Positions 13,604 to 23,865 of a stretch of 64,000 bases of DNA are shown here, piece by piece. The translations under genes were made by a program, and so were the position numbers. How positions within the stretch are numbered: the stretch's first letter is position 1; the number at the start of each line of letters is the position of its first letter. The notes below the pieces were generated by a model, which was not told where the DNA came from, made no database searches, and was given only the letters and a program-made list of their open reading frames with translations. The DNA is taken from NCBI GenBank assembly GCA_016712475.1, contig JADJRA010000001.1, forward strand, positions 1,669,414-1,733,413, written 5' to 3'. This DNA is from Deltaproteobacteria bacterium (lineage in GTDB: Bacteria; Myxococcota_A; Polyangia; Nannocystales; Nannocystaceae).

Positions 13604-14683
13604 TCAGTTTGCCGGCGGCAGCGGCGTGCCGTCGTCCCACACGTTCGCGATCCACTGATTGCCCGGCCGCGTCTCGTCGAAGTCGGTGATCGGAAAGTAG
13701 TATCCACACTGCCCGCCGCGCCCGCGCTGGAACACGTTCTCCTCGAACACGATGTTGTTGGCCTGGTCGCCGTAGGGCTTCGAGCCGTCGTCGCCGCTCG
13801 AGCCTCCGTACGCGCATGCACCCCCGGTGGTGGCCATGAACAAGTTGCGATGGATGGTGTTGTTCTGGATCGGCGCAAAGTCGCCGTAGCCCGTGAGATC
13901 GGCAGAGCAGCCGGCATCGGGCGGGAAGTCGGGCGCGTTGCAGAGGATCGAGTTGTGCTCGATCGTCGAGCCGTCGCCCATGCGCACCGCGGACTCGTGG
14001 GCGGTGCCGGTCGGATCGGGCGCCTGATCGTGGATCCACGAGTCGGTCACGCTGCACGCGAACTCGCACCACACGCCCCGCTTGCCGCCGTAGACGTCGA
14101 CGCGCGTGGCGGTGAAGTCGCTCTTGCCGATGCCGCTGTCGTCGTCGGTGCCCTGCACGGGGCCCGCGTCGATCTCGCTGTCGGAGATCGCGAACGAGTA
14201 GCCCATGCCGGGCGCCTCCACCAACACGCTGCCGTTGATCTTGGTGCGCGTGATCCGAACGTCGGCCGCACGGATGACGAGGGGATCACACGTCACCGAC
14301 TTCGCATCGATCTCGGTGCCGTTCTGCGTGATCGTGCATTCGCCGTCATAGTCGGTGAGCGTCGTGCCCGCGGGGATGCCCGTGCGCGTCGCATCGGGCC
14401 AGCATCCGCCGAACGGGTCGGGGCCTCCCGGCGTGTTGGCGGGTGCGTCGCACGGCAGCGGAGCTCCACCGCTGTCGCCGCTGCTGCCTTCACCACCCTC
14501 GCTGGCGTCGCCCGAGCTGCCCGCGCCGGTGCTCCCGCCCTCGCCCCCACCGCCGCCGGACGTGCCGCCGCTGGTCGCGGTGACCACCGTGCCGCCGGTG
14601 GTGTCGGCCCCGGTGCCGGTCGCCGGCCCGCTCGACGGGCAGCCGAGGATCAGCCATCCGAACCACACGGAGCGACGGTGCAT
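13604..14683 (-). CDS. secreted lipoprotein with Gly/Ser-rich linker and probable beta-helix (pectate-lyase-like) domain
   Basis: Lipobox WLILGCPSS, a long G/S/T linker, then a repetitive beta-strand-like sequence. Its 5' end is duplicated at 15802..15943. Confidence 0.65.
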   Translation of the reverse strand: MHRRSVWFGWLILGCPSSGPATGTGADTTGGTVVTATSGGTSGGGGGEGGSTGAGSSGDASEGGEGSSGDSGGAPLPCDAPANTPGGPDPFGGCWPDATRTGIPAGTTLTDYDGECTITQNGTEIDAKSVTCDPLVIRAADVRITRTKINGSVLVEAPGMGYSFAISDSEIDAGPVQGTDDDSGIGKSDFTATRVDVYGGKRGVWCEFACSVTDSWIHDQAPDPTGTAHESAVRMGDGSTIEHNSILCNAPDFPPDAGCSADLTGYGDFAPIQNNTIHRNLFMATTGGACAYGGSSGDDGSKPYGDQANNIVFEENVFQRGRGGQCGYYFPITDFDETRPGNQWIANVWDDGTPLPPAN

Positions 14684-14735
14684 GCTCGACACCTCAGCAC
14701 GCTATCACCGGCCCACGCGCGCCGTCGAGCAAACC

Positions 14736-15431
14736 TCACGCTGCGGACGGCGGCGGATCGCGGCGGCCGTGGGCCACGAGGACGAGTCGGGGAGCCGCAC
14801 GATCTGCTCGCTCGGCGGGCGGTACGGCGAGCGCCAGGCTGTCGGCGTGGGCGTGCGCAACCGCGAGCACCATCACTGCGAACACGACGGGCACCGCACT
14901 GGAGGTCGCCATCGCCGTGGCGATCGCAGCCAGCCCGATCGCCCCTGTCATCGCGACCCGCACACCAGCTCGAACGCGCCGCGCAACGTGGTACACGCCC
15001 CCACCGAGGATCCACACGCTCCACGCGATGAGAAGCACCAACGCGTAGGCATCGAGTGTAGTGCCGCCCGAGGCCGGCAACATGCGCGGGTCGAGCCCGT
15101 GGGCGAACACCGACGCCAATGCGAGCGCAATTCCCCAGCCGACACCGCTGGCGCCGAGCAGCAACACGCTCGACGCGAGTGCAGGAATCCCCAGCGCCAC
15201 GAGACCAGCGCCGCCGCTCGCCATGGCACAGCCGGCGATGATCGAGCCCGCGAGCACCGCGGTGACACCGTTGGCCAGTCGCGGCGTCGGCAACAAGATG
15301 CCGGCCACGACGAGCACGCCCACGACGGCGCCGACAGCGATCCGCTCGACGTTCGACACCAGCCCCAACACGCACAGTACACCACCCACGAGGAGGATGA
15401 GCCCAGCGACGAGGCGATGTTCGGTTGGCAT
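14736..15431 (-). CDS. integral membrane protein (about 6 TM)
   Basis: Very hydrophobic, Gly/Ala/Val/Leu-rich helices. 231 aa. Confidence 0.55.
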   Translation of the reverse strand: MPTEHRLVAGLILLVGGVLCVLGLVSNVERIAVGAVVGVLVVAGILLPTPRLANGVTAVLAGSIIAGCAMASGGAGLVALGIPALASSVLLLGASGVGWGIALALASVFAHGLDPRMLPASGGTTLDAYALVLLIAWSVWILGGGVYHVARRVRAGVRVAMTGAIGLAAIATAMATSSAVPVVFAVMVLAVAHAHADSLALAVPPAERADRAAPRLVLVAHGRRDPPPSAA

Positions 15432-15476
15432 GAGTGCGGGCTCCGAGCAGACAGAACCGGAGTCCGCGTGTCGACG

Positions 15477-15701
15477 TTACGCCGAGTCCCCGGTGGCCCG
15501 CGCCTGCTCGTTCCGAATCGCACTGTAGGTCGCCACGCAGAACGGCACGCAGAAGTTGAGCAACAGGCGCCCCCACGGAATCGCGCCCGCCCCCAGCATT
15601 GCGTCACCGTAGTTGATCACGTTCAGCACGGTGCCGACGACGGCGGCGATCCGCAGGCTGGTGAGGATCATGCGCCGTCGCGTGGCAATCGCGGAGAACA
15701 T
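15477..15701 (-). CDS. small membrane protein (74 aa)
   Basis: Two predicted TM helices, YGDAMLGAG motif. Sits upstream of the 14736..15431 membrane protein in a likely operon. Confidence 0.4.
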   Translation of the reverse strand: MFSAIATRRRMILTSLRIAAVVGTVLNVINYGDAMLGAGAIPWGRLLLNFCVPFCVATYSAIRNEQARATGDSA

Positions 15702-15770
15702 CAGCGTGCAGAAACGGGTCCGCCCGAGCCCGCGTTACGGGGTGCTGGCCGCGGGCTCGGATTCGCGGCC

Positions 15771-15807
15771 ACCGGTCAGCGATCCCCATCCGCGAGCGAT
15801 TCGCCGC
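15771..15807. repeat. 37-bp direct repeat R (copy 1), CCGGTCAGCGATCCCCATCCGCGAGCGATTCGCCGCC
   Basis: Identical copy at 18381..18417 overlapping the cydA stop. Here it abuts the duplicated lipoprotein 5' fragment. Confidence 0.6.
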
Positions 15808-15900
15808 CGGTGGTGTCGGCCTCGGTGCCGGTCGCCGGCCCGCTCGACGGGCAGCCGAGGATCAGCCATCCGAGCCACACGGAGCGACGATGCACGTTCG
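15781..15900 (-). pseudogene. gene fragment: duplicated signal-peptide region of lipoprotein 13604..14683 fused to a 9-codon tail shared with cydA
   Basis: Minus-strand translation [39 protein letters not shown]. The first 30 aa copy the lipoprotein N-terminus. The last 9 aa plus stop lie in a 37-bp repeat also present at the cydA 3' end. Confidence 0.5.
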
Positions 15901-15997
15901 ACACCTCAGCACGCTATCACCCGTCCGCACGCGCCGTCGAGGAATCCCGTGCCGGGGCGCGCCCTCGACTGCGGACGAATGCAATCTCGGTCCGCCG

Positions 15998-16999
15998 TCA
16001 CTGCGTCCCGCGATGGCCCGCGTCGCCGCGAACGGCGACTTCGAGATCCGGCAACCCATCGAGTGCGGCATCCACCGGGTCCGCCGCCACCGCCGACGGC
16101 GCGGGTGCGATGACCTTCAGCGCGCGTGGCAACGCCGTCAGCGTCACCGGCGTCTCGCCGAAGGGCTCGCCGTCGAGCAGGATCTGCTGCCGTGGATCCG
16201 TGCGAATCGTGACGGTCGACGACGCGAGCGAGCCGACGTTGTCGCGGTTCGCGGGCTCCCCCTCGAGCGCGCTGCGGTAGAGGTGCCACGTCGTGGCAAC
16301 CGCCTCGCTGATGCCCTCGGCGGCGACGATGGTCGTGTCGAGCAGGCCGTCGTCGGGCACGAGGTGAGACGGGCCCTGGGCCATCATGGCGCGCGGCGGC
16401 GCAATGTTGGCCACGCCGACGCCGATCGATCGACAGCGAATCTCGTGTGCGTCCGACGTGATTTCGACGGCGAACGACGCGAGGCTCGCGAGCTGACGCA
16501 GCGCCGAGCCCACGTACGCGAGCACGCCCCAGCGTTGCTTCGACTCGACCGTCGCGGACGCGATGGTGTCGGCGTGGATGCCGATCATGCAGTGCAAGAT
16601 CATCGTGCGCTTGCCGGCCTCGGCCTCCGCCACGCCGACGTCGATCGTGCGCGTCGGGGCCGACTCGAGCAGCGCGATCGCCTCGTGGAGATCGCCGGGA
16701 ATGCCGAGTGCGACCGAGAACGAGTTCGACGTGCCCATCGGCAGCACGCCGAGCGCTGGTCCGTTCTCACCCAGGCCGAGCTCGAGCAGCGCAGCGGCCA
16801 CCGCCGACACCGTGCCATCGCCACCGGCCGCGACGATGCGATCGGGCTGCGATCGCAGGCAGTGCCGCGCGCGATCGACAGGGTCCTCGTCCTCGCCGAG
16901 CTCGCACACCGTCACGCCCTCGAGCTTGGCGCGCGCCTCGTCGAGCAGCTCTGCGGTCGCACGCGACGCCCGCGGGTTCCACACCAAGATCGTCGTCAC
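15998..16999 (-). CDS. diacylglycerol kinase catalytic-domain lipid kinase (YegS/DgkA-like)
   Basis: Conserved ..RIVAAGGDGTVSAVA.. (GGDGT) motif and overall DAGK_cat-like architecture. 333 aa. Confidence 0.8.
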   Translation of the reverse strand: MTTILVWNPRASRATAELLDEARAKLEGVTVCELGEDEDPVDRARHCLRSQPDRIVAAGGDGTVSAVAAALLELGLGENGPALGVLPMGTSNSFSVALGIPGDLHEAIALLESAPTRTIDVGVAEAEAGKRTMILHCMIGIHADTIASATVESKQRWGVLAYVGSALRQLASLASFAVEITSDAHEIRCRSIGVGVANIAPPRAMMAQGPSHLVPDDGLLDTTIVAAEGISEAVATTWHLYRSALEGEPANRDNVGSLASSTVTIRTDPRQQILLDGEPFGETPVTLTALPRALKVIAPAPSAVAADPVDAALDGLPDLEVAVRGDAGHRGTQ

Positions 17000-17127
17000 G
17001 CGGGCATGCTACCCGAGTCGACGACAAGCGCACGCAGGCGGCACGGCGCGCGAACCCGCCGGCGAGCGCGAGGCGTCGACGCCGTGACCGAGCCGACGAC
17101 CATACCGCGTGACCGAGCGCCCGCGTC

Positions 17128-18297
17128 TCACATGCAGCAGTAGGTGATCGCGTCGGTCGGCGCCACGCCGCCGACGAGCGATCCGCCCGACGGGGTGCAG
17201 CTGGCGTCTGGCTCGGGATAGTAGGTCGCGTGGCTCGCCGCGGGCTGGACGGCACACGTGCCGGGCGAGGCGTCACCGAGGTAGATCACGCCGCAGCCTT
17301 GGTTGTTGAGCTCGACGTACCCGCCGCAGCTTCCGGTCGGCGTGCCGCAGCTGCACGCGGTGCAGTCGCGATCATCGTCGAGGTCGCCATACGTGATCAC
17401 CTGCTGCGACCACGGCCCGGGCGGACATGCGGCCTCGCCGGCGGCCCAGATGCACATCTGATGAGCATCGGGCGTGCTCGGCAGACAGCCGCCGCCGTCG
17501 CAGCCCTCGGCAATCGCCGCGCTGCAGCTGCGAACGTCGCGGCCCCAGGTGGGCGCGGGGATCGACTCGGTCGCCTCGGGGTCACAGCTCGCGCCGCCGA
17601 TCTGCAGGCTCGGCGTGCTGATCGCGTAGGTGCCGGCGGCGTTGCTGACGAACGTGCACACGTTGGGCTGGAGCACGTCCGCGAGGCCTTGGCTCGCGGT
17701 GCACATCGCGTTGGTCTGCTGCACGGTCACCGCGCCGCAGCTCACGCCCACCGCGTCACCGCACTCGCAGCCGCACGTGGCGTTGCCGGGCGAGAGCTCC
17801 GCGTGTTGATCGCCGTGCACGAGCTGCGGGAAGTCGGCGGGACACGGGTCGGCGTCGGCGCCCTCGTTGATCACCACCGGTCCCTGCCAGCCGCCGGGCA
17901 CATCGGGCGCACACTGGCCGGCGCACACCGGACCGCCGCTGTCGCCCGAGGTGTTGCCGTCGTCGCCGGACGAGGTCGACGGGTCGGTCGCGGTCGGGTC
18001 GGTCTCCGAAGCGGTGCTCGAGCCTCCCGTCGACCCGTCGGTGTCGGACGAGGCTCCCGTCGGATCGCCGGACGAGGCTCCCGTCGGGTCGCCGGACGAG
18101 GCTCCCGTCGGATCGCTGGTCGCCGTGTTGCCGGTGCCGGCGGTCGACGCCGTCGTCGATGCGGTCGTCGCCGAGCTCGAGGACTCGTCGCCCGAGGTCG
18201 GCGCGCCGACGGTGCTCTCGGCCGAGGTGCCGGTGGGATCGAAGCAGGCGGGAACGAGGGCGAGCAAGCCGGCACAGGCGATCGAGGCGCGTGACAT
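17128..18297 (-). CDS. Cys-rich secreted lipoprotein with tandem DPTGASSG repeats
   Basis: Lipobox ACAGLLALVPAC within ORF 17128..18450. Three tandem 21-bp repeats (about 18046..18117) encode DPTGASSG x3. About 30 Cys in the C-terminal half. Confidence 0.6.
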   Translation of the reverse strand: MSRASIACAGLLALVPACFDPTGTSAESTVGAPTSGDESSSSATTASTTASTAGTGNTATSDPTGASSGDPTGASSGDPTGASSDTDGSTGGSSTASETDPTATDPSTSSGDDGNTSGDSGGPVCAGQCAPDVPGGWQGPVVINEGADADPCPADFPQLVHGDQHAELSPGNATCGCECGDAVGVSCGAVTVQQTNAMCTASQGLADVLQPNVCTFVSNAAGTYAISTPSLQIGGASCDPEATESIPAPTWGRDVRSCSAAIAEGCDGGGCLPSTPDAHQMCIWAAGEAACPPGPWSQQVITYGDLDDDRDCTACSCGTPTGSCGGYVELNNQGCGVIYLGDASPGTCAVQPAASHATYYPEPDASCTPSGGSLVGGVAPTDAITYCCM

Positions 18298-18380
18298 GCC
18301 CCCGAAGACCGCGGCGGCGGCGGTTCTGATCACACCGCGGGGTGGGTTTTCGGCGAGCCGAGCGAACGGCCACGCCGGCG

Positions 18381-18417
18381 GCCGCCGGTCAGCGATCCCC
18401 ATCCGCGAGCGATTCGC
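18381..18417. repeat. 37-bp direct repeat R (copy 2) at the cydA 3' end
   Basis: Encodes the last 9 codons (GESLADGDR) plus stop of cydA on the minus strand. Confidence 0.6.
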
Positions 18418-19834
18418 CGCCACGCCCCATCGCGACGTCGGCGGCGGCACGAACCATCGAGGTTGCCGCCGCGGGCTCGGGCGCGTGCGGTGCCTCCGTA
18501 TCCTCGGGCATGTGCGGCCCGTGACGCACCTTCTCGTTCACCACCACCAGCCACAGGGCGAAGAGCGCCAGATAGATCACCGCGAACATCACCAGCGACA
18601 CCATCACCTGGTCGGCATCCACGGCGACGGAGTTGGCATCGCGCGTCCGCAGCAGTCCGTACACCACCCACGGCTGGCGACCGACCTCGGCGGCGACCCA
18701 GCCGCCCTCGTTGGCGGCGTAGGGGCCGAGCACCGCGAGCACGAAGATCCACAACAGCCACCGCTGCTGCCACAGCACACCGCGCCACCACAGCACGCAC
18801 GCCAGCGACGTGAGGCCGATGAACGCGGTGCCGAGCATCGCCATGACGTGGTACGCGAGAAACGGGATCACGACCGGCGGGCGCTCGTCCTCGGGCACGC
18901 GATCGAGCCCGGCGACCGGCGTGTCGAAATCCTCGTGGATGAGGAAGCTGAGCATGCCGGGGATCGCGATGCCGCCGCGGACCCGCTGTGCGTCGACATC
19001 GGGCCAGCCGACGAGGTACATCGGCGCACCGCCTTCGCCGGTCACGAAGTGGCCCTCGAAGGCGGCGAGCTTCGCGGGCTGGTGGCGCGCGACCATGTTG
19101 GCCTGGGCGTGCCCGGACACCAGCTCGCCCCACGACGCCAGCGTGGCGATGACGAGCCCGATCGCGAAGCTGCGCCGGGCGAAGCCGACGTGGCGCCCCC
19201 GCAGCAGGTACCACGCGCTGATGCTCATCACGAAGAAGCCACCCAGGATGAACGCGCCCAGCAGCACGTGATTGAGCCGGTGAACGGTCGAGGGATTGAA
19301 GACCATCGCCCAGAAGTCGGTCACCTCGACGCGCGCGGCGCCATCGTGCACCACGAGGCGGTGCCCGGCCGGCGTCTGCTGCCACGAGTTGGCGATGATG
19401 ATCCACACCGCGGAGAACGTGCTGCCGAGGAACACCATCACGGTCGCGAAGAAGTGCATGCGCCGCGACACGCGGTCCCAGCCGAACACCAGCACCGCGA
19501 GGAAGCCCGACTCGAGGAAGAACGCGAAGATGCCCTCGGCCGCCAGCGCCGAGCCGAACACATCGCCGACGAAGCGCGAGTAGGTGGCCCAGTTGGTGCC
19601 GAACTGGAACTCCATCACGATGCCGCTGGCGACCCCGACCGCGAAATTGACGGCGAAGATGCGGGTCCAGAAGCGAGCCATCGCCTCGTATGCGGCGTCG
19701 CCGGTGCGCAGCGCAAAGCCCTCGATCACGACCATCACCAGCCCCAAGCCGATCGAGAGCGGCGGGAACAGGTAGTGGAACATGATCGTGAACGCGAACT
19801 GGATCCGCGACAGCAGGACGACGTCGAGATCCAC
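18389..19834 (-). CDS. cydA: cytochrome bd-type quinol oxidase subunit I
   Basis: Conserved CydA N-terminus ..[28 protein letters not shown].., Q-loop region and 9 TM. Start GTG with a GAGGTG RBS about 6 nt upstream. No cydB follows. Confidence 0.9.
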
Positions 19835-19844
19835 CGCGATCACC

Positions 19845-20909
19845 TCACTTGTCGAACAGACCGTCGAGGTCCTCGCGCCGCGCACCCTTGGCGTCGCAGA
19901 CCGCGAACTGGCCCCCGGGATAGAGCGCCGCGCCGCCGTAGCGACCGCCGCGATCGACCGCGTAGAAGTTGACGTTGAAGTCGGGCCGCCCATCCGCCCG
20001 CAGCAATCGCTTGGCGCGGGTGGTCTCGACGATGCGCTTGCATGCGGCCATGCACGCGTCCTTGGGGTGCTTGCCCGCGCGGATGAACTCGACCACCGTG
20101 TGACTGCCGGCGCTGACGATGTTGGCCTCGCCACGCCCGGTGCTGCCGGCCGCGCCGACGAGGTTGTCGACGAACAGACCCGCGCCGATGAGCGGCGAGT
20201 CGCCGACGCGACCGGGGATCTTGAACGCGAGTCCGCTGGTGGTGGTGACACCGCCGAGGTCGCCGTTGCGATCGACGCCGCAGCAGTTGATGGTGCCGGT
20301 GATGCCGAAGTGCGCCTTGACGTCGGCGGGCACGTCCTTGCCGGTCTTGGGCAGCCAGTCGTCGCGATCGGACAGCGTCGACTTCCAGTACAGCCAGATC
20401 TCGCGCGCCTCGGGCGTGAGCAGCTCCTGCTCGACGAAGCCGTGGGCGTTGGCGAACGCGCGCGCGCCCTCGCCCGACAGCAGCACGTGATCGGTGTAGC
20501 GCAGCACCGCCAGTGCGACCTGGCTGGGGTTCTTGATCCGTCGCAGCGAGCACACCGCGCCCGCCAGACCGCTCGGTCCATCCATGACCGAGGCGTCGAG
20601 CTCGACCTCGCCGTCTTCGTTGGGCAGACCGCCGAGGCCGACGCTGTGATCGTTGGGATCGTCCTCCACCAGCGTCACGCCCTTCACCACCGCGTCGACC
20701 ACCGGTGCACCGTCGAGGATCGCCTTCATCGCGGTCTCGACGCAGGCGGGATGACCGTTGGCGGAGGCGACCACGACCGGGTGCTTGGGCTTGCGCAGCA
20801 CCGCCGGCGCGGCCGCACTGGCGCCGCGGCTGGGCGGCGCCATCAGGCAGCCGGAGCCGAGCACCATCGACGATCGGAGCAGGAAACCGCGGCGTCGCAA
20901 TCGGGGCAT
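19845..20909 (-). CDS. iaaA: isoaspartyl peptidase / L-asparaginase (Ntn-hydrolase, Asparaginase_2 family) with Tat signal
   Basis: Motifs [32 protein letters not shown]-terminus [21 protein letters not shown] has a twin-arginine (RRxFL) signal. Ends 10 nt before the cydA start. Confidence 0.85.

Positions 20910-20940: not shown

Positions 20941-23865
<2,925 letters not shown>

Follow-up and report, generated by a model that had tools for sequence, protein, structure and literature searches.

An intact, selected cydA without its cydB in an uncultured Nannocystaceae genome, and two superimposed events proposed for its locus

How does a cytochrome bd quinol oxidase gene come to be kept without the gene of its second subunit? 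The question is raised by a 64-kb stretch of a Nannocystaceae (Myxococcota) metagenome genome, from an uncultured sludge myxobacterium, hereafter called the window. It carries cydA, encoding subunit I of the oxidase, with no cydB after it. It also carries a short copy of the 3' end of cydA, fused to a further copy of the beginning of a lipoprotein gene (lipoprotein gene L), namely its upstream region with the first 30 codons. A preliminary description of the locus had tied the two features together by proposing that cydB may have been lost or moved in the very event that left the repeats. The facts of that description hold, but its single-event story does not: comparison with sibling genomes shows two independent events. 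As an explanation of the whole locus, to which we give a probability of roughly 0.6, it can be proposed that an older event, common to the whole species cluster, removed cydB, and that a recent one, confined to this strain, inserted a DNA fragment nearby. The insertion scars are what recombination between strains ordinarily produces, though they can be reconstructed neatly. What is unusual about the locus is an intact, canonical cydA that is under selection without its cydB.

CydA is complete and covers positions 1-418 of 418 of the Pfam Cyt_bd_oxida_I profile (PF01654, E 3.6e-164). The absence of cydB, as first described, is confirmed: tblastn of the 64-kb window with two CydB proteins of relatives gave neither a gene nor a remnant (best E 0.26), and the ATG of a Cys-rich lipoprotein gene lies at 18297, 91 nt past the cydA stop. 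A second cydA was not found within the window either. Relatives whose CydA is 79% identical, namely L004/L005 (a Nannocystaceae metagenome-assembled genome, MAG, with accession GCA_019694555.1, and a contig from ENA) and L087 (JGI metagenome), have Pkinase, Asparaginase_2 and cydA genes followed by a 338-aa cydB (PF02322) whose start overlaps the cydA stop. They share with the window the upstream order Cu-monooxygenase, glyoxalase, kinase-TPR and Asparaginase_2. In a wider comparison of 80 cydA loci from GTDB contigs (one genome per species, among the matches listed), cydB adjoins cydA in 78, and the contigs of the other two both end just past cydA, which none of the 78 does. As the relatives retain cydB, it was lost in the lineage of the window. 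An unnamed NCBI CydA entry (P0012) was considered as a second cydAB locus of the species and set aside, since its MAG is a different one, in which cydAB is intact.

Every gene of the locus lies on the minus strand. Read in that direction, the kinase-TPR, Asparaginase_2, cydA, Cys-rich lipoprotein and YegS-type lipid kinase genes are followed by a chimeric segment, an nrtS-like gene, a gene for a 231-aa protein (IPK74_06900), lipoprotein gene L (IPK74_06895, MBK8235264) and a GNAT gene. CydA is MBK8235269. The features are as follows, the two repeats being named e and p and their copies within the chimeric segment e' and p'.

20941..23865, minus: Ser/Thr kinase-TPR gene, the first in the minus-strand order
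19845..20909, minus: Asparaginase_2 (Ntn-hydrolase) gene with a twin-arginine-like signal (Pfam PF01112, E 2.5e-58)
18389..19834, minus: cydA, encoding subunit I (short Q-loop) of cytochrome bd quinol oxidase, GTG start (Pfam Cyt_bd_oxida_I)
18378..18421, minus: repeat e, the final 30 nt of cydA coding sequence, the stop and 11 nt downstream
17128..18297, minus: gene of a Cys-rich lipoprotein whose linker is S/T/G-rich, containing 24-nt tandem repeats (repeat family D4)
15998..16999, minus: YegS/BmrU-type lipid kinase gene (Pfam DAGK_cat and YegS_C; TIGR00147, 136.8 against a cut-off of 118.65)
15765..15947, minus: chimeric segment (p' and e'), 183 bp
15803..15947, minus: repeat p', presumably the resident (ancestral) start of the lipoprotein gene (upstream region plus 30 codons), severed from the gene body
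15765..15808, minus: repeat e', the cydA 3' end in a probably imported version that meets p' at GGCGGC (15803..15808)
15776..15895, minus: chimeric 39-codon open reading frame (ORF), GTG start, read from the sequence
15477..15701, minus: nrtS-like gene for a small membrane protein, within the insertion (NCBIfam NF038050)
14736..15431, minus: gene for a 231-aa polytopic membrane protein, a near-orphan, within the insertion
14591..14735, minus: repeat p, a probably imported, diverged upstream region and first 30 codons, now heading the functional lipoprotein gene
14461..14590, minus: stretch over which the donor tract probably extends into the lipoprotein gene, on the side of the homologous anchor
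13604..14683, minus: lipoprotein gene L, 359 aa, intact

cydB is also absent from at least five assemblies of siblings, which are 97.7-99.5% identical to the window where DNA was compared. The two most informative are L001, from MAG GCA_020050275.1 (DNA 99.5% identical to the window, exact match in CydA), and L003 (DNA 97.7% and CydA 99% identical). Both have the order kinase, asparaginase, cydA, Cys-rich lipoprotein, lipid kinase, lipoprotein gene L and GNAT. Window, L001 and L003 have an identical cydB-less junction from the end of cydA to the Cys-rich lipoprotein gene, which occupies the position of cydB in the relatives. In three further sibling MAGs at NCBI (labelled Nannocystaceae), whose gene order was read from consecutive protein accessions, lipoprotein gene L, the lipid kinase, one gene and CydA follow one another, implying the same order. 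L001 and L003 are devoid of the DNA at window positions ~14730..15801 and so have no nrtS, no 231-aa gene, no e' and no second p. Neither NrtS nor the 231-aa protein was found at 90% identity or above in the sibling genomes. Since siblings without cydB are yet without scars, nrtS and the 231-aa gene, the scars belong to a later, strain-specific insertion. The proposed link between the loss of cydB and the repeats is thus the part of the preliminary description that has to be given up.

The junction shared by the window, L001 and L003 points to a single cydB loss in their common ancestor, before the insertion. The CydA tail of the window aligns with GGESLVAGERPRDDGGA of L004, and a longer stretch of it with GMGHGGESLVAGERPRDDGGA, while blastn homology of the window to L004, L005 and L087 stops at 18407-18408. 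By these two observations, the deletion took away some 7 codons at the end of cydA together with the whole of cydB. The left breakpoint lies within or just past repeat e (18378..18421). In this first event, a glycosylasparaginase-like-cydA-cydB operon would have lost cydB either by a clean deletion or by a replacement, after which the Cys-rich lipoprotein and lipid kinase genes came to follow cydA. The idea that the present cydA stop and the next bases (TGACCGGCGGCC) derive from the old cydB stop region (TGACCCGGGGCG in L004, TGACCCGGCAGG in L087) was dropped as speculation: about 10 matching bases with an indel, in DNA of 70% GC, are not evidence.

The Cys-rich lipoprotein was likewise rejected as a substitute for CydB, being a soluble lipoprotein with no transmembrane helices beyond its signal peptide and with no match in Pfam or NCBIfam. 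Its gene contains three 24-nt tandem repeats in the S/T/G-rich linker (18045..18122) and is only 87% identical in L003, where its neighbours reach 98-99%, so that it appears to evolve fast.

What, then, are the repeats? They lie where the preliminary description had placed them, to within 1-3 nt. Copies e' and e (15765..15808 and 18378..18421) are identical at 43 of 44 positions and share an exact 37-mer (15772..15808 and 18385..18421), for which shuffled sequences give an expectation of 0 matches. Copies p' and p (15803..15947 and 14591..14735) are 92% identical over 145 nt, and e' and p' overlap by the 6 nt GGCGGC. No further copy of either repeat was found in the window, so that they are not a dispersed element. 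The gain of the window over L001 and L003 is 1,212 bp, a length equal to the start-to-start spacing of the two p copies. By their sequences, the repeats appear to be the two ends of a 1,212-bp insertion in codon 30 of the lipoprotein gene. The idea that they are a residue of recombination is borne out by their junctions and allele patterns.

These patterns also bear on the source of the DNA. L001 and L003 have a single p copy, which up to the junction matches the p' type, also at a diagnostic base 12 nt ahead of it; the exception is a C/T site at 15874, where L001 has the p-type T. Mismatches between the window and L001 are distributed as follows.

p' (15803..15947): 2/145, not significant (p 0.12)
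p (14591..14735): 11/145 (7.6%), Fisher p 1.6e-10
135 nt past the junction (14461..14595): 4/135, Poisson p 0.002
background: 25/6,403 (0.39%)

Beyond the 135-nt stretch past the junction, divergence falls to the background. Moreover, e' carries a T variant that is seen at the cydA end of L003 and not the C of the resident copy. The inserted DNA thus seems to come from a diverged allele. At the other junction, lipoprotein alleles of the L003 type read GGCGGCGAG, which gives a microhomology of 8 nt; such alleles extend it from GGCGGC to GGCGGCGA. Allele pattern, microhomology and divergence tract together fit the import of a linear fragment from a diverged relative. A circular intermediate integrating through p is disfavoured, as donor-type differences continue past the junction.

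The same data bear on other origins of the repeats. An intragenomic tandem duplication from the end of cydA to codon 30 of the lipoprotein gene, followed by complementary deletions that also removed cydB, would account for the p'-e' junction, which is what duplicating 14597..18415 would create, and for the survival of each gene in exactly one copy. However, intragenomic copies start out identical, and the p copies differ by 8% where strain and sibling differ by 0.4%; this excludes a recent intragenomic duplication. In addition, siblings without the nrtS and 231-aa genes still lack cydB and have the same cydA-end junction, and L003 is an outgroup to the window plus L001, so that parsimony favours a single insertion. 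We regard the duplication scheme as very unlikely. Scarcely better placed is the idea that the arrangement of the window is ancestral and that the siblings lost nrtS and the 231-aa gene by recombination between p' and p. Direct repeats of 145 nt can mediate such deletions, and the product would retain an intact lipoprotein gene, as is seen. Nevertheless, because L001 and L003 are of the p' type except at 15874, the crossover would have to be confined to the last ~12 nt. Either both lineages or their ancestor would need to have undergone the loss, the latter in conflict with the grouping of the window with L001, and the 8% divergence of p would be left unexplained.

It might also be asked whether the insertion was created during assembly, given that a single MAG has it and that repeats of 44 and 145 nt flank it. 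An assembly of a short-read run, the 1172-nt Logan contig L002 (SRR11674035), is 100% identical to window positions 14659..15830 and covers both novel junctions. It links a p'-type single-nucleotide polymorphism (SNP), via e' and nrtS, to the 231-aa gene and then to p-type SNPs. The arrangement is therefore not an artefact of one assembler. The 2.89-Mb contig of the MAG, moreover, suggests a long-read assembly. An artefact is thus extremely improbable, even if the Logan run may share the sample of the MAG, in which case it is independent as an assembly and not as a sample.

Import of a fragment from a diverged relative remains the preferred origin of the insertion, and the second event can be envisaged as follows. 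A fragment of ~1.35-1.6 kb would have carried, in this order, a cydA 3' end, nrtS, the 231-aa membrane gene, and the promoter and 5' end of the lipoprotein gene. Its right end would have recombined homologously inside lipoprotein gene L, between 14461 and 14195. At its left end, GGCGGC(GA) of the donor cydA tail would have been joined illegitimately to the GGCGGC at lipoprotein codons 29-30. Such a course corresponds to homology-facilitated illegitimate recombination. It predicts a donor junction, in which cydA sequence upstream of e' is joined to nrtS, of the form GATGGGGCGTGGCGGCGAATCGCTCGCGGATGGGGATCGCTGACCGGTGGCCGCGAATCCGAGCCC. Lipoprotein gene L would owe its survival to the promoter and 5' end (p) that came with the fragment. 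The resident stub of promoter and signal peptide (p'), now continuing into 38 nt of the donor's cydA tail, would have produced the 39-codon ORF, the existence of which was correctly noted before. The ORF consists of the lipoprotein signal peptide with lipobox ILGC, 14 more residues and an 8-residue cydA tail. The resident promoter p' may now head this ORF, nrtS and the 231-aa gene, and the imported p may drive lipoprotein gene L, possibly along with read-through.

Several observations weigh against this account. A locus of the donor type, with the end of cydA directly followed by nrtS, was not found in the searches, so that we infer the donor gene order solely from the flanks on the insert. 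The support for the homologous anchor consists of 4 mismatches in 135 nt. The 231-aa protein matches only itself among 5.8e9 proteins, and JGI metagenome contigs gave no relative of it. The relatives of the NrtS-like protein sit elsewhere in their genomes, away from cydA.

Scans of the junction regions for regulatory signals gave no promoter by consensus and three terminator-like sites against 1.6 expected, which is nothing beyond chance. RNA folding of the same regions yielded z-scores from -1.07 to +1.12, and hence no unusually stable fold. A GC-rich hairpin after e' was considered as a terminator and is not supported, scan and folding both being at chance level.

The NrtS-like protein reaches 34.4 bits against a cut-off of 25 for NCBIfam NF038050 (NrtS nitrate/nitrite transporter) and is thus a putative transporter. 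Its nearest NrtS proteins, 62-71% identical, come from other Nannocystaceae, including the MAG that holds L004. Their conserved context (L089-L095, e.g. L091 1900..3871) consists of a Pel9A-like beta-helix gene, NrtS and, on the opposite strand, Sua5/YciO. The 231-aa gene has a GC content at third codon positions (GC3) of 0.81 against 0.89-0.93 in its neighbours. Among 1.84e9 representative proteins a single homologue, P0168 (L097 5098..5697), is 30% identical, in an unrelated, myxobacterium-like context. P0168 shares an N-terminal MPxEHR motif with the 231-aa protein and adjoins a kinase-FGE-sulfatase gene.

Does the loss of cydB mean that cydA is decaying? Between the window and L003, both without cydB, cydA shows 35 synonymous and 9 non-synonymous differences, i.e., a synonymous divergence (dS) of 0.10 and a ratio of non-synonymous to synonymous divergence (dN/dS) of 0.08. 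In the same comparison dN/dS is 0.08 for the asparaginase, 0.15 for the lipid kinase and 0.17 for lipoprotein gene L. Under neutrality, 9 or fewer non-synonymous changes out of 44 would have a probability of 6e-14. Tajima-type relative-rate tests with five outgroups show no acceleration of cydA with respect to the cydB-bearing L004 and L087 (e.g. 30 vs 33 unique changes). No stop or frameshift was found in cydA of seven cluster members. When CydA is aligned to 6rko/7ose, counterparts of E. coli H19, E99, E107, H186, K252, E257, M393 and E445 and the GRQPW motif are present; the sole replacement among the residues compared is a His at the counterpart of R391. cydA has thus been under purifying selection since the loss of cydB, and purifying selection together with intact catalytic residues indicates that it still encodes a needed protein.

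The contrary view, that a recent deletion of cydB left cydA as a relic without function, which has yet to degrade, could appeal to the requirement of canonical qOR-type bd oxidases for CydB (Murali et al., 2021, bioRxiv 10.1101/2021.01.16.426971) and to the 64-kb window, which has no cydB. It is hard to reconcile with a gene that has gained a dS of ~0.10 since the shared deletion at a dN/dS of 0.08, far from neutrality, without stops, frameshifts or acceleration and with a GC3 of 0.93, and we consider it highly improbable.

The annotation of CydA in these MAGs by PGAP gives 464 aa starting at MFHYLF. The GTG start at 19834, supported by homology, adds 17 residues (19784..19834, minus) that align with the E. 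coli N-terminus.

A needed CydA raises the question of its partner. In the qOR1-3 families CydA associates with CydB, and only the archaeal CydAA' enzymes are without CydB (Murali et al., 2021, bioRxiv 10.1101/2021.01.16.426971). CydA of the window would most likely assemble with a CydB encoded elsewhere in the genome, a reading that we hold to be probable. The search for cydB, which extended over the 64-kb window, gave no match there. On the other side, Green et al. are said to have reported in 1984 that subunit I of E. coli alone carries only haem b558; with this precedent, an unpartnered CydA under selection needs another explanation. It is unlikely that CydA dispenses with CydB altogether, whether by acting alone, as a homo-oligomer or together with an unrelated partner. 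If it did, it might be a haem-b membrane protein that is kept by selection, oxidises quinol and passes electrons to oxygen or to another acceptor.

The gene upstream of cydA is part of the same history. As already described, an Asparaginase_2 gene with a Tat-like start (ATG at 20909) ends at 19845, 10 nt ahead of the GTG start of cydA; a Shine-Dalgarno-like GAGGTGA overlaps its stop codon in the window. It had been seen as an odd operon partner for an oxidase, a view that the comparison contradicts: the pair is conserved, with the same 10-nt gap in L003, L004 and L005 and a gap of 54 nt in L087, where the twin-arginine-like motif is also kept. Among the matches listed, none of the 80 more distant loci has Asparaginase_2 near cydA. 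The association thus appears specific to the subclade and older than the loss of cydB, and the Asparaginase_2 gene is the ancestral upstream partner of cydA. The label of isoaspartyl peptidase was imprecise. The protein scores 220 bits, over its full length, with glycosylasparaginase and 115 with the E. coli-type enzyme (isoaspartyl peptidase/EcAIII). Its 114.9 bits fall short of the cut-off of 567 of the NCBIfam IaaA equivalog NF007589, and its best PDB matches are the glycosylasparaginases 9gaf and 1p4k (E 4.6e-64, full length). By these scores it is a glycosylasparaginase-like protein and not an IaaA equivalog.

The comparison with relatives that the preliminary description had called for thus bears fruit in two ways: L004, L005 and L087 have cydB, and the siblings separate two events where one had been supposed. 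The association of cydA(B) with a periplasmic enzyme of glycosylasparaginase-like type is conserved and, as yet, unexplained. The insertion offers, in an uncultured myxobacterium, a case in which genes were probably gained by homologous recombination at one side and a microhomology joint at the other, and it can be cleanly reconstructed. For cydA, the significance turns on what else the genome encodes. Should CydA be served by a cydB at another place, the locus would be a useful, if modest, example of natural subunit sharing between bd oxidase paralogues after operon decay. If the genome has no cydB, a canonical bacterial CydA would be kept by selection on its own, which contradicts the two-subunit minimum assumed for qOR-type bd oxidases. 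It would then provide a simpler natural scaffold to study haem and quinol chemistry, and a CydA working without CydB would represent a bacterial qOR-type bd oxidase in a natural minimal form.

Gene content changes from strain to strain in the 3 kb downstream of cydA, which are a hotspot in this respect. L003 has, between lipoprotein gene L and GNAT (L003 9091..9756), an extra 221-aa gene with no assigned function, which is in neither the window nor L001; it is a second gene-content polymorphism in the same ~3 kb. Farther away, L001 17520..17885 (window ~10.7-11.1 kb) holds a 121-aa ORF with a Pfam match to RtcB, far shorter than a normal RtcB ligase and hence possibly a gene fragment. An MbnP-family gene lies further on in L001.

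How does the locus compare with known systems? With canonical CydAB (qOR; E. coli bd-I/bd-II, 6rko/7ose) CydA of the window shares a full-length PF01654 domain, the haem ligands, the Lys and Glu of the Q-loop and the GRQPW motif, and its nearest solved structure is E. coli bd-II subunit I (E 3.6e-98). It differs in that no cydB follows cydA, whereas 78 of the 80 listed loci, and the closest relatives, have one. The archaeal CydAA' (qOR4a/4b), a bd oxidase without CydB, is a precedent for a CydA with a non-CydB partner. However, CydAA' has an adjacent paralogous cydA', where the window has no second cydA, and CydA of the window groups instead with sequences of the bacterial cydAB type. The Asparaginase_2 protein resembles the bacterial glycosylasparaginases (Elizabethkingia/Flavobacterium, 1p4k, 9gaf) over its full length, with an aligned nucleophile Thr and an export signal. 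Unlike them, it has Gly in place of the Asp before that Thr, and its gene stands in a conserved pair 10 nt upstream of cydA; to our knowledge, a pairing with cydA has not been described for glycosylasparaginase.

As for the scars, the immunity arrays of V. cholerae's type VI secretion system (T6SS) and the displacement of Rhs C-termini (PMC5361080) likewise show gene-end stubs of neighbours as direct repeats, and strain-variable content between conserved flanks. Toxin and immunity genes are not involved in the window, and the stub there consists of an N-terminal fragment, a signal peptide, that runs into a cydA tail. Homology-facilitated illegitimate recombination (de Vries and Wackernagel, 2002; Prudhomme et al., 2002), as it is summarised in PMC3240628 and PMC5361080, has been shown to operate in bacteria capable of natural transformation and during conjugation in E. 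coli; here it would be known from sequence, with an unsampled donor. As far as those summaries describe it, the window shares with this pathway an allele tract that probably runs into homologous sequence at one end, a 6-8-nt microhomology junction at the other, and foreign genes trapped between the two.

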